Shown piece after piece: positions 10,920-32,000 of a stretch of DNA of 32,000 bases. Both the position numbers and the translations under genes were made by a program. Below the pieces are notes generated by a model. It was not told the origin of the DNA, did not search any database, and saw only the letters and a program-made list of their open reading frames with translations. Source of the stretch: Candidatus Brocadia sp. (GTDB lineage Bacteria; Planctomycetota; Brocadiia; Brocadiales; Brocadiaceae). The stretch's first letter is position 1. Each line of letters begins with the position of its first letter. Location: the NCBI GenBank assembly GCA_021650915.1, contig CP091279.1:300001-332000 (forward strand). Direction: 5' to 3'.

Positions 10920-10934
10920 GGGGTAAGTGCCGTT

Positions 10935-16044: not shown

Positions 16045-16348
16045 CTGTCCTTGTCATTAGTTCCTTTTCCATCCGGTTTTTATCAGGCGGCTGAATACGC
16101 ATGTATCGCTCAGGTTTACAATAAAGAAGCCTATCAATCAACTCGTTCTCCATTTCGTTTTACAGATATTTCGGTATTTATCTTTTATGCGATCTACTGA
16201 AAAATGTTTTCGCCTTTTATAAATATTTCACCATGGATGGTTAACTTCTCCAGCCGATTTTGCGGCTATCTGTTGCAATGGCTATCCTTAAATATTGCCA
16301 GAAAATAAACTCATTGTTTCAGGAAAAAGAACACGGAGTGCCAGTCTG

Positions 16349-17287
16349 ATGAGCTATAAAATTTTGGTTACGGGCGGTGCCGGCTACATAGGTTCAATTC
16401 TGGTTCCGGAATTATTAAAACAAGGGCATAAGGTAACCGTCCTGGATAACTTTATGTTTGGACAAAATTCGTTGCTCGAATGCTGTGCATATAACCATTT
16501 CGATGTTTTCAGGGGTGATGCAAGAGATGAAAGTATCTTAAAACCTCTTTTGCAAAAGCATGATTACATTATACCGCTGGCTGCGTTAGTAGGCGCTCCA
16601 CTTTGTAGCAGAGACAAGATAGGGACGGTAACAACGAGTAGAGATGCAGCTCTTTCCTTAGTAAAACTCGCATCTGCGGAACACAGAATAATTATACCAA
16701 CAACAAACAGTGGTTATGGTGTTGGCCAAAAAGGGGTGTACTGTACAGAGGAAACACCTTTGAAGCCGATTTCCTTGTACGGAATAGTAAAAGCGGAAGC
16801 AGAAAAGATCGTGCTTGATAGGGGGAACGCTATTAGTTTCAGGTTGGCTACGGTATTTGGAATGTCTCCAAGGATGCGCATTGATTTGCTGGTGAACGAT
16901 TTTACCTACCGGGCCGTGAATGACCGTTTTGTGGTAATATTTGAGGGTCATTTTAAGAGAAATTATATTCACATTCGTGATGTGGCAAGGGCTTTTCTTC
17001 ACGCAATAAACAACTTTGAGGGCATGAAAAATGAACCCTATAATGTGGGCATGTCAGATGCGAATCTTTCAAAGCTGGAACTGTGTGCGAAGATAAAAGA
17101 ATGTATTCCAGACTTCGTTTATTTAGAGTCGCCGGTTGGGGAAGACCCTGACAAAAGAGACTATGTCGTTTCCAACGAAAAAATTGAAAAGACCGGCTTT
17201 AAACCTCTTTATTCACTTGAGGCCGGGATAAAAGAACTTATTAAAGGATATAGAATAATTACAAACAGCAAATATGGCAATATTTAA
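16349..17287 (+). CDS. Extended-SDR NAD-dependent sugar epimerase/dehydratase
   Basis: Rossmann motif ILVTGGAGYIGS and catalytic YGIVKAEAE (YxxxK). About 310 aa. ATG 16349 is preferred (GGAG 10 nt upstream) over the ORF-track start 16295, because the glycine motif normally begins within ~10 residues of the N terminus. Confidence 0.85.
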   Translation: MSYKILVTGGAGYIGSILVPELLKQGHKVTVLDNFMFGQNSLLECCAYNHFDVFRGDARDESILKPLLQKHDYIIPLAALVGAPLCSRDKIGTVTTSRDAALSLVKLASAEHRIIIPTTNSGYGVGQKGVYCTEETPLKPISLYGIVKAEAEKIVLDRGNAISFRLATVFGMSPRMRIDLLVNDFTYRAVNDRFVVIFEGHFKRNYIHIRDVARAFLHAINNFEGMKNEPYNVGMSDANLSKLELCAKIKECIPDFVYLESPVGEDPDKRDYVVSNEKIEKTGFKPLYSLEAGIKELIKGYRIITNSKYGNI

Positions 17288-17338
17288 AGTAATACGGAAT
17301 TATACTCTTAATCTTATTACAAGATATAACTAACACTA

Positions 17339-18070
17339 TTGAATAACTTAACAAAAATTACAGCAACTATTCTTGCTGGAGGGTTTGGAACGCGTCTGTG
17401 TTCAGTAATATCCGGCCAGCCAAAAGTCCTGGCAAAAGTAAATGGCCGGCCTTTTATGGCTTACCTGCTGGATCAGTTAAGTCAGGCAGGAGTAAAAAAA
17501 GTTGTGTTGTGCACAGGCTATTTAGGAGAACAGGTAAAAGCAACTTTCGGCAAGTTCTATAACGATCTTGTGCTTTCATATTCCCAGGAACAGTCAGCTC
17601 TTGGAACCGGAGGTGCACTTAGAAGAGCGCTTCCAGTGTTAAAATCAGACCCCGTTTTGGTCTTAAATGGTGACTCATTTTGCCAAACCGATTTTATTTG
17701 TTTTCTGAACCAGCACATCACAGGGAAGGCAACCGCTTCTTTGCTTGTGGCTGAGGTACCAGACATTGGTCGTTACGGCTCCGTCAAGTTGTCGGCGGAT
17801 GATGAAATCATATCTTTTGAAGAAAAAGGTAAGAAAACCGGGACAGGATTAATCAATGCCGGGGTATATCTTTTAAATCATACCTTCCTGGAATCGATAC
17901 CGAAAGACACAAATGTTTCGCTGGAGCATGAGATATTCCCCTTGTGGATTAGCAAGGGACTTTATGGCTTTCGGAGCAAAGGAAATTTTATTGATATTGG
18001 AGTACCCCAAGATTATGCAGCAGCAGGGGGTTTTTTGAAGAGCAGCATTAAGGCATTCTCCATTAACTAA
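17339..18070 (+). CDS. Sugar-1-phosphate nucleotidyltransferase (HddC-like)
   Basis: N-terminal ILAGGFGTRL nucleotide-binding loop plus LNGDSF and GVYLL motifs. About 240 aa. TTG start with no in-frame ATG nearby. Paired with the HddA-like kinase downstream. Confidence 0.8.
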   Translation: MNNLTKITATILAGGFGTRLCSVISGQPKVLAKVNGRPFMAYLLDQLSQAGVKKVVLCTGYLGEQVKATFGKFYNDLVLSYSQEQSALGTGGALRRALPVLKSDPVLVLNGDSFCQTDFICFLNQHITGKATASLLVAEVPDIGRYGSVKLSADDEIISFEEKGKKTGTGLINAGVYLLNHTFLESIPKDTNVSLEHEIFPLWISKGLYGFRSKGNFIDIGVPQDYAAAGGFLKSSIKAFSIN

Positions 18071-18080
18071 GGAGAAAAAA

Positions 18081-19163
18081 ATGATTATAAGCAGAACACC
18101 TTACCGTATCTCCTTTTTTGGCGGTGGGACCGATTACCCGGTGTGGTATGAAAAACATGGTGGGGCTGTGCTGGCTACAACCATTGATAAGTATTGCTAT
18201 CTTACCTGCAGATATTTTCCTCCTTTTTTTGAACACAAATTTCGTATTGTTTGGTCAAAGATTGAAAATTGTGCTGATGCTCAGAAAATTAACCATCCCG
18301 CTGTACGTGAAATCTTAAATTTCTTGAAGCTCGAACGTGGTATTGAGATACATCACGTGGGTGACCTGCCAGCCAGAAGCGGTATGGGTTCAAGTTCTTC
18401 CTTTACCGTCGGGTTACTCCATGCGCTCTATGCACTGAAAGGCTATATGCCCACCAAACATCAGTTAGCAACAGAAAGCATTTTCATTGAGCAAGAACTC
18501 CTGAAAGAAACCGTTGGTTCTCAGGACCAAGTACTCGCAGCCCATGGTGGCTTCAATCAGATTCTCTTTCTTAAAAACGGTGAAATATCCGTTCATCCGA
18601 TAGTATTGCCATCAGAACGGTTTGACGAACTTAATTCACATCTTATGCTGTTCTATACGGGTATGAAACGTACCGCCTCTGATGTCGCAAGCTCCTATGT
18701 GCATGGTATAGAAGAGCGCAAACGACAATTACGCGTCATGAAGGATATTGTGGAAGAGAGTATTTCTATTCTTAATAGTAGCCATGATATTACCGCTTTT
18801 GGAGAATTGATGCACGAATCGTGGCTGGTTAAGCGTAGTTTAAGTTCCAATGTATCTAATCCACATATCGATGGAATTTATGAAACAGCTATTGCTGCGG
18901 GTGCAATTGGTGGTAAGTTAACTGGGGCAGGCGGCGGAGGATTCTTGCTTCTCTTTACTCCTCCGGACAAACGCAAAGATGTAAAGGAGGTGTTGCATAA
19001 TTTAATCTATGTGCCCTTTAAATTTGATTTCTCCGGGAGTCAGATTATTTACCATAATTTTGAGGAAGATTATTCAGGAATTGAGAAAGAGCGGGATAAT
19101 CAATCTATTATCTTATCGCGAAAACTTGAAAGTTATAACTGCCAGACATTGCAAAAAGTTTAA
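18081..19163 (+). CDS. GHMP-family sugar kinase (HddA-like, heptose-7-phosphate-kinase type)
   Basis: N terminus MIISRTPYRISFFGGGTDYPVWY, typical of the HddA subgroup. GHMP ATP motif GDLPARSGMGSSSSFTVGLLHAL and C-terminal KLTGAGGGGFLLLF. AAGGAG Shine-Dalgarno. Confidence 0.8.
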   Translation: MIISRTPYRISFFGGGTDYPVWYEKHGGAVLATTIDKYCYLTCRYFPPFFEHKFRIVWSKIENCADAQKINHPAVREILNFLKLERGIEIHHVGDLPARSGMGSSSSFTVGLLHALYALKGYMPTKHQLATESIFIEQELLKETVGSQDQVLAAHGGFNQILFLKNGEISVHPIVLPSERFDELNSHLMLFYTGMKRTASDVASSYVHGIEERKRQLRVMKDIVEESISILNSSHDITAFGELMHESWLVKRSLSSNVSNPHIDGIYETAIAAGAIGGKLTGAGGGGFLLLFTPPDKRKDVKEVLHNLIYVPFKFDFSGSQIIYHNFEEDYSGIEKERDNQSIILSRKLESYNCQTLQKV

Positions 19164-19171
19164 TTTTATAC

Positions 19172-20059
19172 GTGAATTTCCCTATGCAAAAGAACCTCTA
19201 TAAAGAATTGTTGTATCAAAAAGATATTCAAATGCTTGAAAATAAAGCCAGAGGCATCAGAGCAACCTGTATTAAAATGGCTCATGACGGTAAAGAGGGG
19301 CATTTAAATGGAGCTTTAAGTTGCGTTGATTTACTGGTCGGGCTATATTACACCTGGCTTGATGTTACACCCAATGACTCGCATAGAAAAGACAGAGATC
19401 GTTTTATATTCAGCAAAGGACATGCATGTTCATCACTTTATGCTGTAATGGCTGATCGTGGCTTTTTCCCCAAACACTGGATCTCCAGCTATGCACAAAA
19501 TGATTCTCCCTTACCGAGTCATCCGTGTATTCACGCCCTCCCGATTCTCGAATGCTCTTCGGGAAGCCTGGGACACGGGCTTGGTATGGCTACAGGCATG
19601 AGTTACGGCTTGCGAATGGATGGAATACAAGCAAGGGTGGTGGTTCTTATCAGTGACGGAGAATGTAACGAGGGGAGTACCTGGGAAGCGGCTACTTTTG
19701 CCGTGGCAAATCGACTCGATAATCTGCTGCTCATCGTAGACAATAATGGGATTCAGTCGGTAGGCCGATCAGATAGCCTGATGGGTTTCACATCGCTGGA
19801 AGAAAAATACACTGCGTTTGGCTGGACTACCCGAATGATAAATGGAAACAACATCATAGAGATTGTTGAAACATTAAAGGAATTCCCTTTTGAAAAAGGG
19901 CGTCCGTCAGCAATTATTGCAAAAACAGTAGCGGGTGCTGGTGTAAGTTTTATGAAAAATCAGGTACTCTGGCATTATCGGGTGCCATCTGACGAAGACC
20001 TTAAAAAAGCTATGCAAGAGTTAAGCGAAGTTCCCATTTATACGGAGTCAAATGCTTGA
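19172..20059 (+). CDS. Transketolase, N-terminal (thiamine-diphosphate-binding) subunit
   Basis: GHLNGALSCVDLLVGLYY, FIFSKGHACSSLYAVMADRGFF, SSGSLGHGLGMATGM and the ThDP motif ISDGECNEGSTWEAATFAVANRLDNLLLIVDNNG. The start is either GTG 19172 or ATG 19184. Confidence 0.85.
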   Translation: MNFPMQKNLYKELLYQKDIQMLENKARGIRATCIKMAHDGKEGHLNGALSCVDLLVGLYYTWLDVTPNDSHRKDRDRFIFSKGHACSSLYAVMADRGFFPKHWISSYAQNDSPLPSHPCIHALPILECSSGSLGHGLGMATGMSYGLRMDGIQARVVVLISDGECNEGSTWEAATFAVANRLDNLLLIVDNNGIQSVGRSDSLMGFTSLEEKYTAFGWTTRMINGNNIIEIVETLKEFPFEKGRPSAIIAKTVAGAGVSFMKNQVLWHYRVPSDEDLKKAMQELSEVPIYTESNA

Positions 20060-20976
20060 GAAAAGCATTCGCAGATACACTTACACAGATTGCGGAACAG
20101 AATTCTCGTGTTGTTCTTGTTACCGGTGATCTCGGATTCCAGGTTTTTGATGAATTTCATGCAAGGTTTGGCCCACGCTACATAAATGTCGGTGTTGCTG
20201 AAGCACAAATGATTTACGCGGCAGCAGGGCTTGCAACAGTTGGCTGGCGGCCTGTAACTTACTCTATTGCCTCGTTTGCAACGGCTCGACCTTTTGAGCA
20301 AATTCGTTATTGTGTAAGCTACCCAAATTTACCGGTTGTTATCGTAGGAGCAGGCAGGGGATATCTTTATTCGACCAGCGGTGTTTCACACCATGCCGCT
20401 GATGACCTTGCGCTCATGTCAGTACTTCCTGGAATGACGGTAGTAGCCCCTGGAGACCCGGACGAAGTAGTACAACTTTTCCCTCAACTATTTAATTTAC
20501 CAGGGCCTTCATATTTCACCGTAGGCCGCTTTGGCGAGCCATCGTATGAAGCCTCTGAACCAGCAATTTTAGGACGTGCCAGGCTTCTTCGTAAAGGAGA
20601 GCAAATAGCCATTATTGGTACTGGTGAAATTGCCAACGAAATACTGAAGGCAATGAAACTTCTCGAACCGGACAAGATTTTTCCAACTGTCTATCAGATG
20701 CACACGGTAAAGCCCCTGGATATGAACACGTTGAATTCGTTGGCAAAAGAGGTGCACGCTATGGTGGTGGTAGAGGAGCATGTCCCTCATGGTGGACTAT
20801 GGGCCGCCATAAGCACATGGCATATAAGTACCGAAACGACTCCTCGAATGATTCGGCTTGGCCCCCCTGATAGTTTTGTCTTTGGAAATTTACGGCAAGA
20901 CGAACTTAGGCGCCGACTCAATTTTGACGCTAACGCGATAGCAAGCACTTGTCGCTCGTTGTGGAAAAAGAAATAA
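20056..20976 (+). CDS. Transketolase, C-terminal (pyrimidine-binding) subunit
   Basis: MRKAFADTLTQIAEQNSRVVLVTGDLG...INVGVAEAQMIYAAAGLA...SHHAADDLALMSVLPGMTVVAPGD. The TTG start overlaps the stop of the N-subunit gene (TTGA), implying translational coupling. Confidence 0.85.
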   Translation: MRKAFADTLTQIAEQNSRVVLVTGDLGFQVFDEFHARFGPRYINVGVAEAQMIYAAAGLATVGWRPVTYSIASFATARPFEQIRYCVSYPNLPVVIVGAGRGYLYSTSGVSHHAADDLALMSVLPGMTVVAPGDPDEVVQLFPQLFNLPGPSYFTVGRFGEPSYEASEPAILGRARLLRKGEQIAIIGTGEIANEILKAMKLLEPDKIFPTVYQMHTVKPLDMNTLNSLAKEVHAMVVVEEHVPHGGLWAAISTWHISTETTPRMIRLGPPDSFVFGNLRQDELRRRLNFDANAIASTCRSLWKKK

Positions 20977-21130
20977 AATTTTTGTAACACTTTAGCTTTT
21001 TGAAAAAATTCCAGTAATGATGCTCTTATCGCACGCGGTAGAGGCAATTCATGAATTACCTCTCCATGTTAACACAAAGGCATTTTCAGTCATTGGCTTT
21101 TTCAAAAAACTAAAGTGTTGCAAATTTTTT
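20977..21130. repeat. 154-bp nested imperfect palindrome filling the whole intergenic spacer (MITE-like or long RNA hairpin)
   Basis: The outer arms 20981-21007 and 21098-21124 pair over 27 positions: 25 Watson-Crick pairs, one T-G and one C-A. At the centre is GAGG-c-AATTCATGAATT-a-CCTC (21041-21062), which contains a perfect 12-bp palindrome. The element starts right after the TAA stop (20974-20976) and ends at the AAGGAG Shine-Dalgarno (21131). Confidence 0.6.
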
Positions 21131-21141
21131 AAGGAGACGCT

Positions 21142-22110
21142 ATGTATCGTAAGATTTTAGTAACAGGAGGCTCTGCTGTGACTGGCAGTGCCTTAAAATC
21201 CATAATCGGTGATTATTCGGAAAGTACGTTCTTTTTCATAAATTCAAAGGATTGTAATCTGGTCGATAGCAATAAAACCATTGCATACATAAGTGAATTA
21301 CAGCCGGATGCTATCATTCATCTGGCGGCAATTAGCGGTGGTATCGGTCTGAGTATGAAATATCCAGCAACCCTATTACGGGATAACGTGTTGATGAATT
21401 TTAACATTCTTGAGGCAGGTAGGCGATGCAACATAAAAAAGATTGTTATGACCCTTACTACGGGCATGTATCCGGAGAATGCACCGCTTCCCCTCAAAGA
21501 AGAGTACATCCACAACGGTCATCCACATGAATCGAACTATGGTTCTTCGTTTGCAAAAAGGCTGGTTGATCCCGCTGTGAAAGCGTACCGGGCCGAATAT
21601 GGTTTAAATATCATAGGCTTGGTGCCAAACGGAATATTTGGTGAAAACGATAACTTCAATTACGACGATGCACCCATGGTTCCAACGCTTATCAGACGCT
21701 TTTATGAAAACAGACATGGCAATTCAAAAATAGTTATCTGGGGTGATGGTACTCCCCTTCGGGAATATACTTATGCAAAGGATGTCGCCAGGGCTTTCAT
21801 GTGGTGCCTGAACCATTATAATGATGCACAAATATTGAATATTGGCACAACTGAGGAACTTTCTGTAAAGGAAATAGCATATCTTATCGCCGGCTTCTTG
21901 AATATTGATACCAGTCGTATTGAATTTGACACAACAAAATCAAATGGAATATTCAAAAAGAGCGTAGATAATTCCCGTTTTATCAGTATCTCAAAATTCC
22001 AGTATACATCTTTTAAGGCCGGTTTGGAAAACACTATAAGGTGGTTTTGTGATACCTATCAGAAATCTCCCGAAAGCATAAGAATGAAGGGCAAAAGCAG
22101 GATCAACTAA
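21142..22110 (+). CDS. GDP-L-fucose-synthase-like (GMER/Fcl family) NDP-4-keto-sugar epimerase/reductase
   Basis: ILVTGGSAVTGSAL, DAIIHLAAISGGI, VPNGIFGENDNF and IVIWGDGTPLREYTYAKDVARAF follow the Fcl/WcaG pattern (xPxNxYGxxDNF and WGxGxPxREF). About 320 aa. AAGGAG Shine-Dalgarno. Confidence 0.75.
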   Translation: MYRKILVTGGSAVTGSALKSIIGDYSESTFFFINSKDCNLVDSNKTIAYISELQPDAIIHLAAISGGIGLSMKYPATLLRDNVLMNFNILEAGRRCNIKKIVMTLTTGMYPENAPLPLKEEYIHNGHPHESNYGSSFAKRLVDPAVKAYRAEYGLNIIGLVPNGIFGENDNFNYDDAPMVPTLIRRFYENRHGNSKIVIWGDGTPLREYTYAKDVARAFMWCLNHYNDAQILNIGTTEELSVKEIAYLIAGFLNIDTSRIEFDTTKSNGIFKKSVDNSRFISISKFQYTSFKAGLENTIRWFCDTYQKSPESIRMKGKSRIN

Positions 22111-22137
22111 GTTGGAACTATTATACTGGAAAAACCA

Positions 22138-23109
22138 ATGAAATACAGAAAACTTGGCAATACTGGAATAGAAGTATCAGAAATTGGGTTTGGCACATGG
22201 GGGCTAGGCGGTAATTCGTACGGTCCGGTCGATGACAATGTCTCTAAAACTGCCTTACGTTTTGCCTTTGATTCTGGAATAACTTTCTATGATACATCCG
22301 ATCTGTATGGCAATGGCCACAGTGAGGAAGTTCTAGGTGATGCATTGCACGATGTTAGAGATAAAATTATTATCTCTACAAAAGTTGGTTTGCTTCCGCA
22401 TACCGGCTTCGGCATGCCATGCGACTTTTCCCCTGCATACATAAGACAGGAGCTAGATGTTAGTTTAAGGCGATTAAGATCAGACTATGTTGATATCTAT
22501 CTTCTGCACAGTCCAACTATTGAAATGCTGAGAGAGGATCGAGAAATTGTTGCCACACTGCAAATCCTTAAAGAGGCTGGGAAAATCCATGCATACGGGA
22601 TTTCTGTAAGATCGCCTGATGATGGGCTTGTGGCAATTCAAGAATTTGGTATTAACGTAGTTCAGGTAAATTTTAACATGATTGATCACAGAGCAATTGA
22701 TAACGGCCTGTTTGATGTAGCCTGCGAGAAGAAGGTAGGGGTTATTGCGCGAACGCCGCTGTGTTTTGGATATTTAACAGGCAAGTTGCATGGGAACGAA
22801 AAATTTGAAGGTATAGATCACAGAGCGAATTGGCCAGTAGACCAGCGACAAAGATGGGCTAATGCCCCCGATTTATTTTTGTTCCTGAACCAAAGGAAGA
22901 ACCGTACTCCGGCACAGTCGGCGTTGCGGTTCTGCCTTGACCATAAAAGCGTTTCAACAGTTATTCCTGGTATGATGAATTGCAACGAAGTCCGAGAAAA
23001 TGCCCTGGCCAGCAGTTTGGAAGCATTGAGTGCTGAAGAAGTGGCAAGAATCAAATTGATATATGAAAACAACGTCTTTTATGACCATTCTGCTAAACAA
23101 AGAAAGTAA
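22138..23109 (+). CDS. Aldo/keto reductase
   Basis: MKYRKLGNTGIEVSEIGFGTWGLGG...GITFYDTSDLYGNGHSEEVLGDAL...YVDIYLLHSP is the classic AKR signature. Confidence 0.9.
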   Translation: MKYRKLGNTGIEVSEIGFGTWGLGGNSYGPVDDNVSKTALRFAFDSGITFYDTSDLYGNGHSEEVLGDALHDVRDKIIISTKVGLLPHTGFGMPCDFSPAYIRQELDVSLRRLRSDYVDIYLLHSPTIEMLREDREIVATLQILKEAGKIHAYGISVRSPDDGLVAIQEFGINVVQVNFNMIDHRAIDNGLFDVACEKKVGVIARTPLCFGYLTGKLHGNEKFEGIDHRANWPVDQRQRWANAPDLFLFLNQRKNRTPAQSALRFCLDHKSVSTVIPGMMNCNEVRENALASSLEALSAEEVARIKLIYENNVFYDHSAKQRK

Positions 23110-23112
23110 GCC

Positions 23113-23880
23113 GTGACTCTTCAAGATCCATCACGATTTCTAGAGCCAGCAAGGACAACAACTGGTGAAGTTCAATTTCGGGTTATTTTGGAAGATTATT
23201 TTTCAAACAGCATCGGAAGCAACGTGGAGAAACTGCAGAATTTTACCAAATATGTGCCAACGCAGGATCTGAGAAAATTCCTTTGCAGGTATGAGCTCTT
23301 TAGAAAAATCCTGCATGTTCATGGTTCAATCGTCGAATGTGGTGTGCTCTACGGTGGTGGTTTGATGGCGTGGGCGCAGTTAAGTGAAATTTTTGAACCG
23401 TTGAATCATCTTCGAAATATCATCGGTTTTGACACTTTTTCAGGTTTTGTTTCTCTTTCTGAAATGGATAAAACAGGCACTGCATTTCAGGGTAAAAATG
23501 GAGGATTGGCAATAGATGCTTATGATGACTTGCTAAAAAGTATTGCCTTATATAATAAAAATCGTTTTCTCGCCCACATAGAGAAAGTCAAATTGGTTAA
23601 AGGCGATGTTGCCGTATCTCTTCCCGCATATCTAAAGACAAATCCACATCTTGTTGTTAGCCTTTTGTATCTTGATTTTGACATATATGAACCTACAGTC
23701 GTTGCCCTTAGGCATCTAATACCAAGGATTCCTAAGGGAGGCATCATAGCTTTTGACGAACTAAACCACGAGGTTTGGCCAGGTGAAACAATTGCGGTAA
23801 TGCAGGAGATGGGTTTAAACAAGCTAAGAATAGAAAGATTTCCTTTTGGTTCTACCATGTCATATGCAGTAATTGAATGA
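23113..23880 (+). CDS. TylF/MycF-type SAM-dependent sugar O-methyltransferase
   Basis: GSIVECGVLYGGGLMAWAQL (SAM loop), YLDFDIYEPTVVALRHLIPRIPKGGIIAFDE and a size of ~255 aa match the macrocin-O-methyltransferase fold family. GTG start 3 nt after the AKR stop. Confidence 0.7.
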   Translation: MTLQDPSRFLEPARTTTGEVQFRVILEDYFSNSIGSNVEKLQNFTKYVPTQDLRKFLCRYELFRKILHVHGSIVECGVLYGGGLMAWAQLSEIFEPLNHLRNIIGFDTFSGFVSLSEMDKTGTAFQGKNGGLAIDAYDDLLKSIALYNKNRFLAHIEKVKLVKGDVAVSLPAYLKTNPHLVVSLLYLDFDIYEPTVVALRHLIPRIPKGGIIAFDELNHEVWPGETIAVMQEMGLNKLRIERFPFGSTMSYAVIE

Positions 23881-23911
23881 TCAAACTCGATATTTGAAAA
23901 AATGTGGAACG

Positions 23912-24880
23912 ATGTCTATGTATAGCCAGCGGAACTTATCAAAATTGACTATAGATGATTTTGCCAGACTATTTGGCACAACTGCAGATGATATTGACGA
24001 GTATTGCAAGGGGCTTGTAGATACGATGGATTTCAGTTTTGAACAACTTTCTGATATTGAGCGAGACAAGTTGATACTTAACATACTAAAAAGGATTGAT
24101 TTGGCCGATTTGCCTGTATCTGGGGAGGAAAGAAAGCCGGAATGGGAAAAAGGCTGGGCGGATAATCTTCGGGATTTTATTAATTCAGGATATGATCTCT
24201 CTAAACTTGTCCCAAAGTATTTCAAGAAAAATATCCCGGTTCGGCTCAATCGTGAATATGTGATGCCGGTGGATCCTGACTTTGTCCTTAATTGTACCAG
24301 GGTTTTTCGCAATTGGATATTCAGGAAATATTTGAAAGATGTCGATTCTATCTACGAATTCGGTTGCGGCCCTGCCACACACCTTGCCTTTTTGGCAGGT
24401 ATTTATCCTGGAAAGAAGCTCTATGGGCTCGACTGGGCAAAACCTTCGCAGGAAATTATCCGGCTCTTGGCAAAACATTTTGGCTGGCAAATAGAAGGAC
24501 GTCATTTTGATTTTTTTGCCCCTGATGTAAATCTGCATTTGGACGAAAACAGTGCAGTTTATACTTTTGGAGCGCTTGAGCAAATAGGAGGGAATCATAA
24601 AGCCTTCCTGCAATTTTTGTTGAAAGAATCTTTCAAGCTGTGCATTAATGTTGAATGTATCAGTGAATTCTACAATCAGGACTACTTGCCAGATTATCTC
24701 GCCTTTAAATATCACAAAAGAAGAAACTACCTGGATGGCTATCTTACCCGTTTGCAGGAATTGGAGGCTGAAGGAAAGATCATAATACTGGCAATGCACC
24801 ATCAGCAATTTGGCAATATATATGATGATTCTCATTCTTATGTGGTATGGAAACTAAGGAAAATACCTGCTACATCATAA
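23912..24880 (+). CDS. Class I SAM-dependent methyltransferase with an uncharacterised N-terminal domain
   Basis: Motif I IYEFGCGPATHLAFLAGIYPGKKLYGLDWA and a post-I acidic residue. Downstream is AVYTFGALEQIGGNHKAFLQFL. The first ~150 aa have no recognisable family. The start is uncertain among TTG 23873, ATG 23912 and ATG 23918. Confidence 0.6.
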   Translation: MSMYSQRNLSKLTIDDFARLFGTTADDIDEYCKGLVDTMDFSFEQLSDIERDKLILNILKRIDLADLPVSGEERKPEWEKGWADNLRDFINSGYDLSKLVPKYFKKNIPVRLNREYVMPVDPDFVLNCTRVFRNWIFRKYLKDVDSIYEFGCGPATHLAFLAGIYPGKKLYGLDWAKPSQEIIRLLAKHFGWQIEGRHFDFFAPDVNLHLDENSAVYTFGALEQIGGNHKAFLQFLLKESFKLCINVECISEFYNQDYLPDYLAFKYHKRRNYLDGYLTRLQELEAEGKIIILAMHHQQFGNIYDDSHSYVVWKLRKIPATS

Positions 24881-24890
24881 AAGGTTTTGT

Positions 24891-25400
24891 ATGGAAGTTA
24901 AGCAAACTAAACTTACAGGAGTTTTGACGATTAAGCCCCCTACTATTTTTGAAGATTTCAGGGGAACGTATGTTGAATTGTACAATGAACAGCTTTACAT
25001 AAATGCCGGAATAAAAGTAAAATTTATCCAGGATGATATTTCTATTTCCTCAAAGCATGTCTTACGCGGTATTCACGGTGACAAGGAAACATGGAAATTA
25101 ATTTCCTGTTTATATGGCAAATTTTATTTAGTCGTGGTTAATTGGGACAAGAATTCCCTCCAGTATTGCCAGTGGGAATCCTTCACCTTATCAGAAAAAA
25201 ATTGTATTCAAGTCTTAGTGCCTCCAAATTTTGGCATTGGCCATCTGGTTTTAAGTGAACAGGCGATATTTAGCTACAAACAAAGCACCTACTATAATCG
25301 TGCCAATCAATTTACCCTCGTGTGGAATGACCAGAAACTTAATATATGGTGGCCAATTAATAATCCAATCTTATCACAAAGAGACTCAGGGATTGGTTAA
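24891..25400 (+). CDS. RmlC-type cupin NDP-4-keto-sugar 3,5-epimerase
   Basis: TKLTGVLTIKPPTIFEDFRGTYVELYN...LRGIHG...KLISCLYGKFYLVVVN...LVPPNFGIGHLVLSE follows the dTDP-4-dehydrorhamnose 3,5-epimerase pattern (FxDxRG, RGLH, cupin core). About 170 aa. Confidence 0.8.
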   Translation: MEVKQTKLTGVLTIKPPTIFEDFRGTYVELYNEQLYINAGIKVKFIQDDISISSKHVLRGIHGDKETWKLISCLYGKFYLVVVNWDKNSLQYCQWESFTLSEKNCIQVLVPPNFGIGHLVLSEQAIFSYKQSTYYNRANQFTLVWNDQKLNIWWPINNPILSQRDSGIG

Positions 25401-25440: not shown

Positions 25441-28400
25441 ATGTCTGTGTCTGTTAAAAACCGTGCCAGCCTGAGAGTTTTATATATTCCTTTAGAGTTT
25501 AAAACGTGGCAAAATGCAAGCCACCTTCCTTACTCTGGGAATTATGGTTTTGAAGAAGGGTTCACTGCTAACGGGATGGAATATCTGACGATTCCAGCCT
25601 TTTATGAAACGACATCTTCCGAACAGATATCATGGCTGAACCATGCACGTGAGCTTTGTGCAGGAAAAAATTTTGATCATGTTTGGCTTGAGATCGTTCA
25701 TAGTAGATTTGATGAAAGTTTTCTGGACTGGATTGCGACAATAGCTCCGGTTCGCATTGGCTTTGTCTGGGAAAGCTGTGAAATGCACCCTGACGAAATT
25801 GTAAATAATCCCGAAGGTGTCAAAAGACGACAAGCTAATCTCGAAAGGAATTTTAAATTTGTAACGCATGTCGTTGCTATTGACGAAAAAGATGTGGAAA
25901 ATTTTAACACCCATAACTTGGTAAAAACCAAATGGTTATGGGATGCCGGAATAATGCCTGAACGTTTCATCTGCAAGGAACTTCCGTCAACGCCCGCGCC
26001 CAATAATTGTGCAGTTTTTTATGGGTCTCTCTATGGTGAAAGGAAAAAATGGCTGGAACATAGCGCCTTGAAGGGTTTACTGGTCCGCCCGGTGGCTTCT
26101 CCAGAATATAGCACCAATCTGCCTGGTCTTTTTGATAAATTGAATGCTACTTCTGATGCATTTTTAAAAGAAGAGCAGGCCTCTACCGAAGAGTTCTTTT
26201 CTACTTATATAGACTCTTTGCGTGTCATTCGCAGGGAATGCTTTGCCCTTTGGCTGAGTGGACTGAGTATGGGGGTTGCGATTGTGAATTTACCGCAATT
26301 TGGTAAGGGTTATGCAAGCCGTGTACTTGAAGGGATGGCCGCGGGACGTCCGGTTATAAGCTATGAAATCCCAGACCGGCCAAGAACCAAAGCTCTCTTT
26401 GAGGATGGGAAAGAAATTTTGTTGTACAAAGGAGATGATCCTTATCAGTTGGCGGAACATATACAACGGATTTTGCGTGAGCCGGACTTTGCCAGGAGGA
26501 TCTCAGCGAATGCCAGAAGCAAAATAATGAGTTTTCATACCACGGAAAGATTGGTTAGCCAGATACTTGACTGGGTTGAAAATCGGGAAATAAATTCTTC
26601 TTTAATGGCTCATCCTTTACAAGGTAATCAAACACAGCCTGGCAACAAGATGCTGTTGACGCGAAATTTTTATGGTCCGGGAGATATCGTATTTGATGTT
26701 GGAGCAAATGTCGGCGACAAGACTCATATGTTTTTAGAGAGTGGCGCAAAGGTAATATGTTTTGAACCTCAATCTGATTGCACAACGATATTGCAGAAGA
26801 AGTACGGCAATGACAAAAGAGTAGTAATTGTTGAAAAAGGCTTGGCTGATAAAAATGGAAAAAGGCTACTTTCTGTATGCTCACAGGCTAACACAATCTC
26901 CACTTTTTCAGATGACTGGAAAAAGGGAAGATTTGCTGACTATACATGGGATAAATCTGACGTGGTAGAAGTTATTACTCTTGATGATGCTATTCATACT
27001 TATGGATTCCCTCAATACGTCAAGATTGATGTAGAAGGATTTGAATATCAGGTTCTGTGTGGTTTATCTAAACCAGTTCCATATTTATCATTTGAATTTA
27101 CAATTGAATTTCTTGATCGTGCAAAGCAGTGCATGTCTCATTTGGAGAGACTCGGTTACGAATTCTTTAATTTTTCCGAAAAAGAAATACCTCAACTGGT
27201 TCTTTCCGAATGGGTTTCCTCAAAAACTCTTTTTAAAAAATTGGAACGTTTGACAGATCAGTTATATTGGGGTGACATTTACGCAAAGTACGATACGTTA
27301 TCTCCGAATAATAAAAAAAATTTTACTCATGAAATTAAACACATTCTTCCTGATAAATCAGCAGTAGCAGCAAATATAAGAAATACGATTTCAACTGTTA
27401 ATACCAATATTCTCAAACAACTCTATATTACAGGTCTTTGGGGTGACAATCAGCCGCTTCGCCTTCACCTTGGTTGCGGAGAACAGCGCCTCGATGGCTA
27501 TGTAAATATTGATTATCCACCAAGCGAGCATAATGTCATGCAGGTGAAAGCGGATGTTTATGCGAACATTATGGAATTAGATTTTCCTGCAGGGTCTGTA
27601 GACGAGATCAGGTCGCACCATGTCTTTGAGCACTTTAATCGTGTTACAGCCCTGGCGATGCTTATCAAATGGCACCATTGGCTAAAGGTCGGCGGAAAAC
27701 TGCATATTGAGACGCCTGATCTCGTTGGTAGTGCAAAGACGTTGTTGGGCGATTACTCCTGGAAGACAAAAATGGGGGCAGTTCGGCATATAGCCGGGGA
27801 TCAGTCTTCCGGTTGGTCATATCATATTGATCACTGGTTTCCCGAAAGATTTGAACACACTTTGAATAATCTGGGATTTCGGCCTGTACAAACCCAGTCA
27901 ACATCCTGGCCACACGATCCATTTTTGTCAAACGTTACCGCTATTGCTGTAAAATCGCACAATGTCTCTTTGTCAGAGCAGGTAAAGGCCGCTGATGAAT
28001 TGTTGTGGGAAAGTACTGTTGCATCCACTGAGCAACCAACCTATGAAGTCTGGAAGCAACAGCTTCGTTCTCTTTTGTCAGACAAATCCGAAATGGCATC
28101 ACAGGTGCCTTTGGGTTCTCAGTTAGAACAGGTCGCTCACGTCTTTCAGCAATCCAAGTCAGAGCAATCAATTCAGGAAATACACGACTTTAACCAGAGA
28201 GAGCGCGACAGATGGGTTCAACTGAAGGCGGTGACCGTGCCTGCAGGTTCACGAGTGTTAGATATCGGTGCGGGAACGTGTCCCTATCGTGCGCTATTTG
28301 CGCATGGTGATTACAAAACGCATGATTTCAAACGATACACGGGTGAGAAGCTTGGTGGAACAACGGAATACGGCAAGATTGATTATGAATCGGATATTTG

Positions 28401-29049
28401 CGCTATACCCGTACCGGACAACTCCTTTGACGTAATCGTCTGCACTGAAGTCCTGGAACATACTCCGGAACCAATCGAAGCGCTCCGGGAGATGTCGAGG
28501 ATCTTAAAGGAGGGCGGCAGACTGTTCCTGACCGCTCCGCTTGGGTCCGGACTGCATCAACTGCCGTATCACTATTATGGCGGGTTCACGCCGGAATGGT
28601 ACAAGCATTTTTGCAGTAAATTCGGTTTATATGTCTCCGAAATCTCACCAAACGGGGGGTTTTTCAAACTGCTTGCTCAGGAATGTGCACGTGTGGCCTG
28701 GACATTGCCTCAACACCAGCATCTGCATGGGAATAACGTGGAGTTGATCAAAAACCTGTTCGGTGAATGGATACCTCGCTATTTATTTGAGCTGGAAAAG
28801 AAACACGGTATTGACCAGTTCACCGTCGGCTATCACGTAGAAGCTGTGAAAGTCAGAGATATCGATACCGTTCAGAAATTGATTGAAAACGATCTCCAAA
28901 ATGTGAATCTCTATCTTGAAGCCGCACGATCTCTGTTGAATCAAGGTGAGTATTTACCTGCAAGAAGGTATGTAGAAGACGCATTGGAACTCAACCATAG
29001 CAATACCACGCTTATTGAGATGCATCAACAATTGGTGAATAAGCCATGA
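25441..29049 (+). CDS. 1202-aa fusion: GT-B-like glycosyltransferase + FkbM-type methyltransferase + two class I SAM methyltransferase domains + TPR-like tail
   Basis: The GT1-type C-lobe is ASRVLEGMAAGRPVISYEIPDRPRTKALFEDGKEILLY (~26320-26440). The FkbM domain is GDIVFDVGANVGDKTH...VKIDVEGFEYQVL (~26660-27200). The second methyltransferase is LRLHLGCGEQRLDGYVNIDY...HVFEHF...LKVGGKLHIETPD (~27457-27950). The third is RVLDIGAGTCPY...FDVIVCTEVLEHTPEPIEALREMSRILKEGGRLFLTAP (~28200-28700). The tail is LYLEAARSLLNQGEYLPARRYVEDALELN. AAGGAG Shine-Dalgarno. Single uninterrupted ORF. Confidence 0.75.
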   Translation: MSVSVKNRASLRVLYIPLEFKTWQNASHLPYSGNYGFEEGFTANGMEYLTIPAFYETTSSEQISWLNHARELCAGKNFDHVWLEIVHSRFDESFLDWIATIAPVRIGFVWESCEMHPDEIVNNPEGVKRRQANLERNFKFVTHVVAIDEKDVENFNTHNLVKTKWLWDAGIMPERFICKELPSTPAPNNCAVFYGSLYGERKKWLEHSALKGLLVRPVASPEYSTNLPGLFDKLNATSDAFLKEEQASTEEFFSTYIDSLRVIRRECFALWLSGLSMGVAIVNLPQFGKGYASRVLEGMAAGRPVISYEIPDRPRTKALFEDGKEILLYKGDDPYQLAEHIQRILREPDFARRISANARSKIMSFHTTERLVSQILDWVENREINSSLMAHPLQGNQTQPGNKMLLTRNFYGPGDIVFDVGANVGDKTHMFLESGAKVICFEPQSDCTTILQKKYGNDKRVVIVEKGLADKNGKRLLSVCSQANTISTFSDDWKKGRFADYTWDKSDVVEVITLDDAIHTYGFPQYVKIDVEGFEYQVLCGLSKPVPYLSFEFTIEFLDRAKQCMSHLERLGYEFFNFSEKEIPQLVLSEWVSSKTLFKKLERLTDQLYWGDIYAKYDTLSPNNKKNFTHEIKHILPDKSAVAANIRNTISTVNTNILKQLYITGLWGDNQPLRLHLGCGEQRLDGYVNIDYPPSEHNVMQVKADVYANIMELDFPAGSVDEIRSHHVFEHFNRVTALAMLIKWHHWLKVGGKLHIETPDLVGSAKTLLGDYSWKTKMGAVRHIAGDQSSGWSYHIDHWFPERFEHTLNNLGFRPVQTQSTSWPHDPFLSNVTAIAVKSHNVSLSEQVKAADELLWESTVASTEQPTYEVWKQQLRSLLSDKSEMASQVPLGSQLEQVAHVFQQSKSEQSIQEIHDFNQRERDRWVQLKAVTVPAGSRVLDIGAGTCPYRALFAHGDYKTHDFKRYTGEKLGGTTEYGKIDYESDICAIPVPDNSFDVIVCTEVLEHTPEPIEALREMSRILKEGGRLFLTAPLGSGLHQLPYHYYGGFTPEWYKHFCSKFGLYVSEISPNGGFFKLLAQECARVAWTLPQHQHLHGNNVELIKNLFGEWIPRYLFELEKKHGIDQFTVGYHVEAVKVRDIDTVQKLIENDLQNVNLYLEAARSLLNQGEYLPARRYVEDALELNHSNTTLIEMHQQLVNKP

Positions 29050-32000
29050 AGACAAAGTTACTGTATGTTGGAATGCAATATGATTACGGCGATAAAACGA
29101 GAGGTTTTTCGTTTGAACACCGGAATTTTTACCATCCACTCAAGAGCTATTGCAAGAAGCACGATTGGGATTTTATACACTTCGATTTTATGGAGCAGGG
29201 ACTCAACGATGGTCTGGACGTGATGACACAGGGTCTCTATGAATTGGCAAAAAAAGAAATACCCGCCATTTTATTCGCCGTATTATTCGATTTTCACCGT
29301 GATCCACGATATGAGGTATTTAGGCAAATAGCATCATTAGGCACGACAACCATTCACTGGTTTTGTGACGATCACTGGCGGTTTGAGAAGTACAGCTCCG
29401 TAGTTGCCCCCCATTTTGACATCATTTGTACAACGGCGAATGACTCCCTCCCAAAGTATCACGCTATGGGAATATCCCCTAAAGTCATAAAAACTCAGTG
29501 GGCATGCAACCATGAATTGTATATTCCTTACGACATCCAAAAAGATGTAGAGATCAGTTTTGTAGGACAACCTCATGGTAATCGTGTAGAAGCATTAGCA
29601 AAATTACTGCAAAACGGATTCAAGCTGGAGGTCTTTGGTTTTGGATGGGAAAACCGGCCACGCATCCCTTTTCATCAAATGGTAAGGCTGTTTTCACGGA
29701 GTAAAATTAATCTCAATTTATCAAATTCATCAACGTTAATCGGGCAGCAGATTAAGGGAAGAAATTTTGAGATTCCGGGAACAAGAAGTTTTCAATTATC
29801 CAGCAATGCTGACAATCTCTCTGAGTACTACGAAGCGGGAAAAGAGATCATAATATTCAATTCAGTGGATGAATTAATTGAAAAGGCTACATACTACTTT
29901 AAACATGACGATGAAAGAAACGAGATAGCAAATAACGGGTACCAGCGAACCATGGCTGAACATACCTGGCAACATCGTTTTGAAAAAATATTCAATGCTA
30001 TCACTGCAAGGCAGCATAACCCAGGCATACCCGTGAAACATGTTTCTCGCTCGGATAGCATCGGGAAACAGATGGACGCACGGCAGGTGGCTGAGCCACT
30101 GGTCTCGGTAATAATTCCCTGTTACAACCAGTCAAATTATTTGTCAGAGGCAGTTGAAAGTGTGGTTCATCAAGGCTATAAGAACTGGGAGTGCATTATT
30201 GTTAATGATGGCAGCCCGGACGATGCAGCCTGCGTTGCTGAATTGTTGATTCAGAAATATCCGGACAAACGAATCCGGCTCGTGAATCAGGTGAACCAGG
30301 GCTTGTCCTCTGCGCGGAACGCAGGAATCAAGGCAGCAAACGGTGAATATATCCTTCCCCTTGATGCGGATGATCTCATCCATCAGGACATGTTGCAAAA
30401 GACAGTATCCTTATTAGCATCTCATCCGGAGATAGCAATTGCCTATACGGATGTAAGGCATTTTGGCGGTGCGGAACGAATTGTCTGTGCAGGAGAATAT
30501 GATTTTAAACGATTATGTTTTCAAAATCATCTCAATTGTTGCTCACTGTACCGGCGTAAAGCCTGGGAGGCTGCAGGGGGGTATAATCCCAACATGACGT
30601 GGGGGTACGAGGACTGGGATTTCTGGATATCCTGCGGAGAAAAAGGATATTATGGAAAGAGAATACCTGAGCCATTGTTTCTCTATCGGGTGAAAGAGAC
30701 CAGTATGTATACAAAGGCCATTGAACATCATCGTGAGTTAATGGCTCAAATTATTGTCAACCACCCAAACCTTTATGACCCGAAATCCCTTTCAGAGGCA
30801 AAAAGAATATTGGCTCCAGGGTGTACGGTTCCATTAAAAACCAAGCCCCTTGTTTCTGTTGTTGTGCCAACATATAACAGGCCAGACACCCTGAAAACTA
30901 CCTTGGAAAGCATCGCTTCGCAGACGTACAAACATATCGAGGCAGTTGTGGTGAACGACGCAGGAGAAGACGTATCAACGGTTGTCGATCTTTTTCGTGA
31001 CCGGTTGCGTATTCAATATCTTGTTCACCCTGAGAATAAAGGGCTTGCAGCAGCAAGGAATACCGCTATCAGGCATGCTTCGGGTGAATATATTGCTTAC
31101 CTCGATGACGACGATATGTTTTATCAGGATCATATAGAAACCCTGGTAACGTATCTGGAAACGAGCGGTGATAAAGTAGCCTATACGGATGCATACCGCG
31201 TATGTCAGGAAAAAGAAGGCGGAAGGTATGCCATAAAACAAAAAGACGTTCCGTACTCCTTTGATTTCGATGCAGACCTCATTCTGGCACAAAACCTCTT
31301 TCCTGTCCTCTGCGTTATGCATCGAAAATCATGTCTGGATGAAGTAGGGCTTTTTGATGAGTCGCTCACCACCCATGAAGACTGGGATTTGTGGATTCGC
31401 ATATCCAGAAACTATCATTTTACCCATATAAAAAAGATCACCGGTGAGTTTACATGGAGGACAGATAGCGCCAGCATGTCGGGTGCAAGGCAAGCTGATT
31501 TTCTGAGGACAATGGGCATTATCTATGAAAAATACAAGAGCTATTTGCGAGACAAACAGCGGATTTTAGATTTGCAAACTGCATGGATTCAGCATCTTCA
31601 AAAGGTATCTATCATCATACCCGTTTTTAACAAGGTTGAATTCACCAAAAAATGCTGTGAGGCCTTGGTCAAAAATACACCACGAGGCCTGTACGAACTT
31701 ATTATTGTTGATAACGCATCAACAGATGATACCAGCGCTTTCCTGAAGGGGCTAAAAGGTGATGTTAAAATAATAACAAACGAAAAGAACCTGGGTTTTT
31801 CCAGGGCATGTAATCAGGGGGCACGGCTGGCCGCCACCAATTACCTCCTGTTCTTAAACAATGATACCGAACCGATGAAAGGGTGGTTGGAACCGCTCCT
31901 GCATATTCTTACCCAGGATAGCTCTGCAGGCGCTGTGGGCAGTAAACTTTTATTTCCGGACGGCACCATCCAGCATGCCGGGGTGGTAATTATCGATGAT
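29046..32000 (+). CDS. Multi-glycosyltransferase fusion (CgeB-like GT-B + three GT2 domains), 3' end beyond the window
   Basis: This gene is absent from the ORF track because it has no stop in the window. I translated the frame and found it open from ATG 29046 (ATGA overlap with the upstream stop) to nt 32000, giving 985 codons. The CgeB/Glyco_trans_1_2-like part is SKINLNLSNSS...IKGRNFEIPGTRSFQLS...NNGYQRTMAEHTW (~29046-30010). GT2 domain 1 is VSVIIPCYNQSNYL...NDGSPDD...LDADD (~30098-30720). GT2 domain 2 is VSVVVPTYNRPDTL...VNDAGED...LDDDD (~30849-31500). GT2 domain 3 is VSIIIPVFNKVEF...VDNASTDDT...FLNNDT (~31605 onward). Confidence 0.8.
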   Translation, partial: MKTKLLYVGMQYDYGDKTRGFSFEHRNFYHPLKSYCKKHDWDFIHFDFMEQGLNDGLDVMTQGLYELAKKEIPAILFAVLFDFHRDPRYEVFRQIASLGTTTIHWFCDDHWRFEKYSSVVAPHFDIICTTANDSLPKYHAMGISPKVIKTQWACNHELYIPYDIQKDVEISFVGQPHGNRVEALAKLLQNGFKLEVFGFGWENRPRIPFHQMVRLFSRSKINLNLSNSSTLIGQQIKGRNFEIPGTRSFQLSSNADNLSEYYEAGKEIIIFNSVDELIEKATYYFKHDDERNEIANNGYQRTMAEHTWQHRFEKIFNAITARQHNPGIPVKHVSRSDSIGKQMDARQVAEPLVSVIIPCYNQSNYLSEAVESVVHQGYKNWECIIVNDGSPDDAACVAELLIQKYPDKRIRLVNQVNQGLSSARNAGIKAANGEYILPLDADDLIHQDMLQKTVSLLASHPEIAIAYTDVRHFGGAERIVCAGEYDFKRLCFQNHLNCCSLYRRKAWEAAGGYNPNMTWGYEDWDFWISCGEKGYYGKRIPEPLFLYRVKETSMYTKAIEHHRELMAQIIVNHPNLYDPKSLSEAKRILAPGCTVPLKTKPLVSVVVPTYNRPDTLKTTLESIASQTYKHIEAVVVNDAGEDVSTVVDLFRDRLRIQYLVHPENKGLAAARNTAIRHASGEYIAYLDDDDMFYQDHIETLVTYLETSGDKVAYTDAYRVCQEKEGGRYAIKQKDVPYSFDFDADLILAQNLFPVLCVMHRKSCLDEVGLFDESLTTHEDWDLWIRISRNYHFTHIKKITGEFTWRTDSASMSGARQADFLRTMGIIYEKYKSYLRDKQRILDLQTAWIQHLQKVSIIIPVFNKVEFTKKCCEALVKNTPRGLYELIIVDNASTDDTSAFLKGLKGDVKIITNEKNLGFSRACNQGARLAATNYLLFLNNDTEPMKGWLEPLLHILTQDSSAGAVGSKLLFPDGTIQHAGVVIIDD

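Follow-up and report, generated by a model that had tools for sequence, protein, structure and literature searches.

Proteins that join glycosyltransferase (GT) modules to one another, or to tetratricopeptide repeats (TPRs), are the described systems closest to the gene considered here. This gene starts near the end of a 32,000-nucleotide stretch of DNA from Candidatus Brocadia sp. (GenBank assembly GCA_021650915.1, contig CP091279.1, positions 300,001 to 332,000 of the forward strand; the whole stretch is called the window below, and positions are counted from its first letter). It encodes a 1557-residue protein, the multi-GT protein, in which a CgeB-like GT-B module is followed by four GT2 modules (GT2a to GT2d) and about four TPR repeats. 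GmaR of Listeria monocytogenes, a GT2 module followed by TPR repeats, is a flagellin O-GlcNAc transferase and also an anti-repressor. Its domain order is the same as that of GT2d and the TPR domain here, but it has a single GT module, and the GmaR chain 22ao matches GT2d weakly (E 5.5e-4), no better than generic GT2 enzymes do. CgeB of Bacillus subtilis, the founding member of the Pfam family PF13524, is a stand-alone spore-maturation protein, whereas the PF13524 domain here is the first module of a fusion. Flagellin glycosylation is a cytoplasmic, sequential process independent of oligosaccharyltransferases, and the TPR domain of FlmG of Caulobacter crescentus binds flagellin (PMC7591256). 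FlmG is likened to the multi-GT protein by architecture only: it is a soluble, cytoplasmic TPR-GT fusion that acts with no oligosaccharyltransferase and is encoded with flagellar genes (PMC7591256), but it has one GT-B module and an N-terminal TPR domain and transfers a single pseudaminic acid, where the multi-GT protein has five GT modules and its TPR domain at the C-terminus.

Several GT modules on one polypeptide are known from polysaccharide synthesis. WbdA-type enzymes devote one module to each linkage type, and the WbdA/WbdD and Klebsiella O7 ORF6 systems combine such modules with a methyltransferase partner or fusion (PMC11231755). They differ from the present case in having two to three modules, a coiled-coil ruler, wzm/wzt genes and a lipid-linked acceptor, and no polymerase of this type ends in TPRs. 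The chondroitin polymerase K4CP (PDB 2z86/2z87), with two tandem GT2 modules in one chain, is the best solved relative of GT2a, GT2c and GT2d, and its DCD and DSD motifs align with the LDADD and LNND motifs of the multi-GT protein; it differs in being a two-module alternating polysaccharide co-polymerase, and the likeness, at 20-30% identity, covers the N-terminal halves of the modules only. The chlorovirus PBCV-1 protein A111/114R carries three different GT domains proposed to attach, one after the other, three sugars of a glycan on protein, bypassing the host endoplasmic reticulum and Golgi (PMC7826918). By architecture alone it would come closest among known systems to a protein-directed glycan assembly line, but it is viral, makes an N-linked glycan, and has three modules and no TPR domain.

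The complete gene and its product

The first-pass annotation, made from the window alone, had described an open-ended frame of at least 985 codons from 29046 on the forward strand, unlisted as an open reading frame (ORF). The frame of the ATG at 29046 is stop-free through base 32000, which gives 985 codons, and it is missing from the ORF list because that list excludes ORFs running off their source. This ATG is the only possible start, since an in-frame stop stands at 29040, with no earlier start codon, and the N-terminus MKTKLLYVGM is kept in homologs of several phyla. A search with the complete 1202-residue protein encoded upstream returned five contigs, including L001, which is 100% identical to window positions 15441-32000 and extends 2150 nt further. 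The full ORF on this contig (L001:13606-18279) encodes 1557 residues and closes with a stop, equivalent to window position 33719; the continuation past 32000 that the first-pass annotation had called for supplied the true C-terminus, a fourth GT2 module and the TPR domain. An identical or near-identical protein is already public as 'hypothetical protein B6D35_00945' of Candidatus Brocadia sp. UTAMX2, an anammox planctomycete.

The long frame is real, and the gene and its architecture are certain. Apart from an older assembly of the Joint Genome Institute (JGI), four assemblies agree exactly with the window. The frame is intact in three independent assemblies besides L001 (L003-L005 hold the gene start, L013 and L014 the whole gene), and orthologs of 1526-1558 residues occur in at least nine other Brocadia-type assemblies. 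The frame is broken only in that older JGI assembly (L002; 2030936003, ANAMFRP_C3920; about window 24141-32000), which calls the gene as fragments of 626 and 449 residues. Its alignment with the window opens 11 gaps, and the breaks are three single-A indels inside the multi-GT gene, two of them in A5 runs (31240 and 31527) and one, at 29432, the loss of one A of an AA pair. As a database entry, L002 conceals the true architecture of the gene. The refuting case named in the first-pass annotation, an error-corrected assembly with a broken frame, thus has its opposite here. The multi-GT protein has no hydrophobic segment (the maximum 19-residue hydropathy is 1.24) and no signal peptide, and is soluble and probably cytoplasmic.

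Modules, motifs and selection

The CgeB-like GT-B domain and the three GT2 domains claimed for the visible part are all present in Pfam, and it is only the full protein that goes further, with a fourth GT2 module and the TPR domain lying beyond the window. On the 985-codon part, Glyco_trans_1_2 (PF13524, the CgeB-like family) covers residues 182-316, and three Glycos_transf_2 stretches start at about residues 354, 604 and 854, with a whole-protein E-value of 3e-97; a piecewise Pfam scan of all 1557 residues gave the order CgeB-like GT-B, GT2a, GT2b, GT2c, GT2d and about four TPR repeats. The Pfam cut-offs are 23.3 bits for PF00535 and 25 bits for PF13524.

29046..32000, forward strand: multi-GT gene, first 985 of 1557 codons (open frame; full ORF on the identical contig L001)
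29046..30020, forward strand: module 1, residues 1-325, predicted complete two-lobed GT-B, CgeB-like (PF13524), GT4-like fold (Pfam, AlphaFold2, Foldseek)
30096..30725, forward strand: module 2, GT2a, about residues 351-560, with IIPCYNQ, NDGS, LDADD and YEDWD (PF00535, 117.2 bits)
30846..31535, forward strand: module 3, GT2b, about residues 601-830, with VVPTYNR, NDAG, LDDDD and HEDWD (PF00535, 117.2 bits)
31596..32000, forward strand: module 4, GT2c, residues 851 to about 1100, N-terminal part, cut by the window end, with IIPVFNK, VDNAS and LNNDT (PF00535, 98.8 bits; YEDVD lies beyond the window)
Beyond the window, within L001:17006-18279: module 5, GT2d, about residues 1135-1370, with LNNDV and YEDDD (PF00535, 102.0 bits)
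Beyond the window, within L001:17006-18279: TPR domain, about four repeats, about residues 1400-1545 (TPR_1, 86.6 bits)

Module 1 scores 110.6 bits against PF13524, and no solved structure matched it at the level of sequence. An AlphaFold2 model of the N-terminal 345 residues (pLDDT 86, pTM 0.84) has as its top Foldseek matches 7qsg (a methylmannose-polysaccharide mannosyltransferase), MshA, BshA, PimB', WbnH and PglA, with TM-scores of 0.6-0.68 and E-values of 1e-11 to 1e-8, and by this model module 1 is predicted to be a complete GT-B of the retaining GT4 type. The typical motif of GT4 enzymes is E-x7-E. Module 1 has the invariant stretch Q235-I-K-G-R-N-F-E242-x-P, and with Gln234 eight positions before E242 the motif would read, from sequence alone, as Q-x7-E. 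The module matches the N-termini of multi-GT proteins in several phyla at 440-690 bits and is 55-84% identical among homologs across phyla.

The (I/V)P-x-(Y/F)-N and acidic motifs reported earlier for the GT2 modules are found as IIPCYNQ with LDADD, VVPTYNR with LDDDD and IIPVFNK with LNNDT. GT2a (DAD) and GT2b (DDD) have the canonical D-x-D, and an E-D pair stands at the expected region of the catalytic base in all four modules (YEDWD, HEDWD, YEDVD and YEDDD). Across 11 orthologs, which range from Brocadia to Kuenenia, neither the acidic nor the ED motif changes in any of the four modules. The GT2 modules are not recent duplicates, as the first-pass annotation had also held, because they are pairwise only 19-33% identical. 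Against five Brocadia orthologs the ratio of non-synonymous to synonymous substitution rates (dN/dS) is 0.10-0.28 for each GT module, 0.16-0.37 for the TPR region and about 0.15 for the frame, which shows that all modules are under purifying selection. Among solved structures, the closest relatives of GT2a are K4CP, GalT1 and heparosan synthase, and that of GT2b is PglI (E 8e-25); the TPR region matches the TPRs of SPINDLY and OGT, the protein O-fucose and O-GlcNAc transferases. The suggestion that the modules make different linkages is in keeping with these results, in that one linkage per module, by analogy with characterised enzymes, would fit GT2 modules that are distinct and individually conserved. 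As a separate observation, the synonymous rate dS of GT2a against the same orthologs (0.43-0.58) is consistently below that of the other modules (0.68-1.04). Lineages may have recombined here, or the nucleotide sequence itself may be constrained.

The methyltransferase partner

The gene directly upstream encodes a 1202-residue protein that ends within the first codons of the multi-GT gene.

25441..29049, forward strand: partner gene, 1202 residues, GT-B, FkbM methyltransferase and two class-I S-adenosylmethionine (SAM) methyltransferase domains (Pfam, NCBIfam, motifs, AlphaFold2)

The FkbM domain covers residues 417-546 and the class-I methyltransferases about residues 670-790 and 934-1049, with the class-I motifs LHLGCGE near residue 676 and VLDIGAGT near residue 939. 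The N-terminus is a complete GT-B (pLDDT 87.5; Foldseek matches to PglA, GlgM, MshA and BshA), the sixth GT module of the pair. In relatives only the C-terminal 500 residues or so are always kept, as a 506-residue protein in L010 and as the C-terminus of a 2582-residue Kuenenia giant.

The functional pairing of the two proteins is well supported, since the stop of one gene overlaps the start of the other by 4 nt (ATGA), the adjacency of the two gene types is conserved in other phyla, and in a deltaproteobacterium (L007) both are fused in one 1836-residue ORF. The first-pass annotation had also hinted at a paired complex, on the ground that the two N-termini resemble each other; the pairing holds on the evidence of overlap, adjacency and fusion, but the resemblance does not carry it. 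A specific kinship of the two CgeB-like N-termini was looked for and rejected, with a BLASTP E-value of about 5 and a profile-profile alignment by hhalign that joined only 69 C-terminal columns at 94% probability. Both are GT-B folds within one Pfam family and nothing closer.

Natural variation of the modules

Three to six GT2-like modules, often with TPRs, are found in 108 of the best 120 relatives, and the architecture therefore represents a common, uncharacterised class. The close clade keeps the order a-b-(c)-d-TPR. In Wunengus (L021-L023, L099) the protein, of about 1240 residues, is CgeB-a-b-d-TPR and misses GT2c, while in Kuenenia (L015) it is a-b-c-d-TPR, about 1220 residues long and without the GT-B module, each module being 63-72% identical to its Brocadia counterpart; 918-residue versions of the form a-b-d-TPR are also seen (P0021-P0028). 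The natural occurrence of variants lacking GT2c or the GT-B module supports the independence of the modules.

Islands of the Kuenenia type (L015:912-8660, L101:10001-19267, L102:10001-17479) also encode giant proteins of 2492-3088 residues that combine sulfotransferase, TylF, class-I methyltransferase, GT1/GT4, GT2, radical-SAM and TPR domains. The MptE-like domain is typical of Maf flagellin glycosyltransferases, and an 880-residue protein of L102 has a weak MptE-like (PF01973) match.

Genomic context and the flagellar link

The window is one co-directional block that runs from flagellar genes through fliW, csrA, a TPR protein and a sugar cassette to the 1202-residue partner and the multi-GT gene.

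778..13852, forward strand: fliK, flgD, flgE, flgF, flgG, flgA, flgH, flgI, flgJ-like, flgN, flgK and flgL, for hook, rod, ring and hook-junction (Pfam)
14125-14589, forward strand: fliW (PF02623)
14617-14889, forward strand: csrA (CsrA-like ORF translation; PF02599 on the L016 ortholog)
14920..16044, forward strand: stand-alone TPR protein, 374 residues (Pfam TPR families)
16295..25400, forward strand: variable sugar-nucleotide cassette (Pfam, NCBIfam)

The fliW-csrA pair is a flagellin-responsive translational checkpoint. Comparison of loci shows which parts of the block persist. Brocadia DTUAMX2 and B. carolinensis carry, in this sequence, flgL-fliW-csrA-TPR, a methyltransferase protein and the multi-GT gene, with no sugar cassette; the methyltransferase protein has 506 residues in DTUAMX2, and B. 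carolinensis gives a comparable C-terminal match. The cassette is different in B. pituitae, WS118 and Wunengus, whose island has NeuB, CMP-sugar synthetase and radical-SAM genes, and L100 has the cassette of the window with extra genes. Overall, what stays the same from locus to locus is the multi-GT gene with its methyltransferase partner, and what varies is the sugar genes, as is expected of a surface-glycan island.

Flagellar neighbours recur well outside Brocadia. A distant planctomycete-type genome of 8.2 Mb has FlgN-FlgK-FlgL-FliW-CsrA, sugar genes, a GT-B/FkbM protein and a 1772-residue multi-GT relative, and L025 is alike. The island of an Ignavibacteriaceae relative ends at flagellin-FliS-FliD, a canonical flagellin lies 3.7 kb from the 1836-residue fusion of L007, and L027 has a flagellin nearby. 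Late flagellar or filament genes thus stand by the multi-GT gene in the window and in L010, L011, L016, L025, L017, L007 and L027, and fused relatives adjoin flagellar filament genes in at least four phyla. The flagellin connection suggested in the first-pass annotation fits this conserved neighbourhood.

Proposed function

It is very likely that the multi-GT protein has a multi-step role in glycan building. With its C-terminal TPR domain the protein looks less like a polysaccharide polymerase and more like an enzyme that acts on proteins, and we favour a soluble, cytoplasmic, TPR-guided modular enzyme that builds a methylated O-glycan with flagellin as the acceptor, a proposal that we consider to stand in even balance between right and wrong. 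It rests on the recurrent late flagellar neighbours, on the lack of lipid-carrier and export genes nearby and on the precedent of cytoplasmic flagellin glycosylation. The enzyme would comprise one GT-B of the retaining type, four GT2 modules of the inverting type that differ from one another and, at the C-terminus, a TPR domain for docking. The TPR domain would bind the acceptor protein, and the GT sites would add sugars successively from nucleotide-sugar donors, with one linkage type per module. The variable cassette upstream would supply the nucleotide sugars, while the translationally coupled 1202-residue partner would contribute the sixth GT-B and three methyltransferase domains and O-methylate some of the sugars. 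Flagellin would be modified in the cytoplasm, before its export through the flagellar secretion apparatus, in line with other islands for flagellin glycosylation. Which protein accepts the glycan, which sugars are donated, in what order the modules act and whether the two proteins touch we infer from modules and neighbourhood.

A number of observations weigh against this proposal. GT2c and GT2d carry N-N-D instead of D-x-D. The last Asp of the motif is kept and invariant, and HMMER aligns the N-N-D of both modules with the DCD (LDCD) of K4CP; the lack of catalytic DxD residues that the first-pass annotation had raised as a concern is accordingly not shown, GT2a, GT2b and all the ED motifs being regular, but it may still apply to GT2c and GT2d. 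Neither the island nor the rest of the window has a flagellin gene. Among metagenome loci encoding the N-terminal domain, only 2 of 40 have flagellar genes within 10 kb (80 loci were tried, and those of at least 8 kb were counted); this set represents the fusion clade poorly because most of its loci encode stand-alone proteins of about 350 residues, and a 10-kb flank would miss the case of the window itself, whose flagellar genes lie more than 14 kb upstream of the multi-GT gene. In 10-kb views, no flagellar genes are found in six loci with GT2 modules fused to a C-terminal CgeB-like domain, nor in the Pseudomonadota locus L018. No flagellar gene lies within 10 kb on either side of the island in the Kuenenia-type loci; in Kuenenia, the 10 kb upstream of the giant protein are still glycosylation island. 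Moreover, the published Kuenenia glycans have been matched to the S-layer protein only, and their sugars correspond to the cassettes that stand by multi-GT genes.

Alternative explanations

The heavily glycosylated S-layer protein is the chief rival to flagellin and a serious alternative acceptor, because the cassettes encode heptose-type, 6-deoxy-sugar, nonulosonic-acid and methylation functions. The same enzymes could make the S-layer O-glycans of anammox bacteria, whether on a lipid carrier with later en-bloc transfer or directly on the S-layer protein, and their flagellar position would then be accidental; we regard this as rather unlikely. Glycoproteomics of Kuenenia has found a methylated hexasaccharide of five N-acetylhexosamines and a dimethyl-deoxyhexose (PMC5088730), and chains containing nonulosonic acid as well as oligo-heptose chains, all matched to the S-layer protein only (bioRxiv 10.1101/2020.12.03.409086). 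The terms glycosyltransferase and gene cluster are absent from both papers, which we read as no transferase genes having been assigned. The window offers counterparts for such sugars: its cassette has HddA-like and HddC-like proteins, a split transketolase, 6-deoxy-sugar enzymes and a TylF methyltransferase, the partner has three methyltransferase domains, and the Wunengus island adds NeuB with the CMP-sugar synthetase. The six GT modules of the pair equal in number the six glycosidic bonds of the published hexasaccharide, an agreement of arithmetic only, and the Kuenenia loci are free of flagellar neighbours in the regions viewed. On the other hand, the HddA, HddC, Fcl and RmlC matches all fall below NCBIfam equivalog cut-offs, flagellar adjacency recurs in phyla without anammox metabolism, and the two large genes downstream show no S-layer-like features in family searches or, for the complete one, in a check for a signal peptide. 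Glycosylation of an S-layer protein that is exported would normally depend on an initiating phosphoglycosyl transferase, a flippase and an O-oligosaccharyltransferase, and none of these is seen in or next to the island. Among the Pfam matches in the window and the 10 kb downstream there is none to a flippase, an ABC transporter, an initiating phosphoglycosyl transferase or an oligosaccharyltransferase. In the Brocadia and Kuenenia loci that were inspected there is likewise no initiating transferase, flippase or PglL/Wzy_C transferase, though such genes may lie elsewhere in the genome. Flagellin and the S-layer protein may also draw on the same nucleotide sugars.

The first-pass annotation had compared the protein with WbdA as a polymerase that works independently of Wzy. 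On this account the multi-GT protein would polymerise an ABC-transporter-dependent polysaccharide (O-antigen, capsule or exopolysaccharide) in the manner of WbdA/WbdD or Klebsiella O7 ORF6, with the methyltransferase protein as chain terminator, and such a role we consider highly improbable. Multi-module GT polymerases with one module per linkage and methyltransferase terminators are established (PMC11231755), the best solved relatives of the GT2 modules include the polysaccharide polymerases K4CP and heparosan synthase, and one homolog is labelled 'O-antigen biosynthesis protein' by JGI. The locus, however, does not bear out the comparison: the window and the 10 kb downstream have no wzm/wzt genes and no initiating transferase, and neither protein shows a carbohydrate-binding or coiled-coil ruler, a crude heptad and charge heuristic finding only two or three isolated 35-residue windows. 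The multi-GT protein closes with a TPR domain, a type usual in protein recognition, flagellar genes are conserved in its surroundings, and six different GT modules fit a defined oligosaccharide better than a short repeat unit. The idea that the frame results from misassembly, joins separate GT genes in a chimera or belongs to a pseudogene in decay, for which the split genes of L002 would speak, has next to no chance of being right, given the single-A nature of the L002 breaks, the agreement of the four other assemblies, the full-length orthologs and the dN/dS of about 0.15.

Implications of the architecture

All domain families, multi-module GTs as such and the sequence itself were already known. 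Five GT modules and a TPR domain in one protein are a combination that none of the characterised multi-module enzymes we found possesses. Were the proposed flagellin-directed enzyme borne out, no other protein-directed glycosyltransferase with a testable architecture would be as rich in modules (the characterised multi-module examples known to us have two or three), and the pair would provide candidate genes for protein glycosylation in anammox bacteria. The glycoprotein of the S-layer and matrix matters for the formation of anammox granules in wastewater treatment, and the papers searched assign no transferase genes to it. Literature searches on CgeB with flagellin, and on anammox bacteria with flagella and glycosyltransferases, returned nothing relevant. 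The natural module variants are a ready-made test of one module per linkage. The protein is a good lead rather than a surprise, as proteins with three to six GT2 modules are common in environmental genomes and this one was already deposited.

A bolder possibility is that the two coupled proteins form a self-contained cytoplasmic assembly line of six GT and three methyltransferase sites plus a single TPR dock, whose module content dictates a defined methylated oligosaccharide built directly on a protein. We think this unlikely. If it were true, the Wunengus variants without GT2c and the Kuenenia variants without GT-B would give predictably shortened glycans. In a still stronger version, the pair would be the machinery, so far missing, that makes the heavily methylated O-glycan of six sugars on anammox surface proteins, and it could then be re-programmed for designed protein O-glycosylation.

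Other genes and features of the locus

The cassette consists of an SDR epimerase/dehydratase, an HddC-like nucleotidyltransferase, an HddA-like GHMP kinase, a split transketolase, an Fcl-like reductase, an aldo-keto reductase, a TylF-type O-methyltransferase, a 335-residue protein and an RmlC-like 3,5-epimerase. Its NCBIfam matches are all below the equivalog cut-offs, among them the HddC-like (150 bits, cut-off 300), HddA-like (145, cut-off 600) and RmlC-like (141.8, cut-off 155.75) proteins. The genes at 17339-20976 and 21142-25400 look like a pathway to a GDP-linked heptose or 6-deoxy sugar, followed by methylation. The GDP-heptose pathway is reported to be nearly restricted to some anammox genomes, those of Kuenenia and Brocadia sinica (bioRxiv 10.1101/2020.12.03.409086), and the Brocadia that is the source of the window may be a further case.

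The stand-alone TPR protein of 374 residues stays beside the flagellar genes in all Brocadia loci examined, including L010 and L011, which have no cassette. Its best NCBIfam matches are generic (MamA, PilW and the C-terminus of FlcA) and all below cut-offs; it could be a second docking or chaperone component. Scans for promoters and terminators between csrA and the cassette gave counts at chance level.

On the 3' side of the multi-GT gene there follow a small ORF, a KsgA-like gene and then two giant genes on the opposite (minus) strand that carry no annotation (L013:17360-21310, 1316 residues, and 21389-24674, at least 1776 residues). Neither has a Pfam or NCBIfam match, and the complete 1316-residue protein shows no obvious signal peptide and ends in CCENCG; considered as S-layer candidates, they were set aside on these results. 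A strong hairpin lies 1.2 kb past the multi-GT stop on L013. Finally, the 335-residue ORF of the cassette (23873-24880), which begins 8 nt before the TylF-type gene ends, has no Pfam or NCBIfam match, yet it is conserved in other Brocadia islands and reaches 81% identity in L006.

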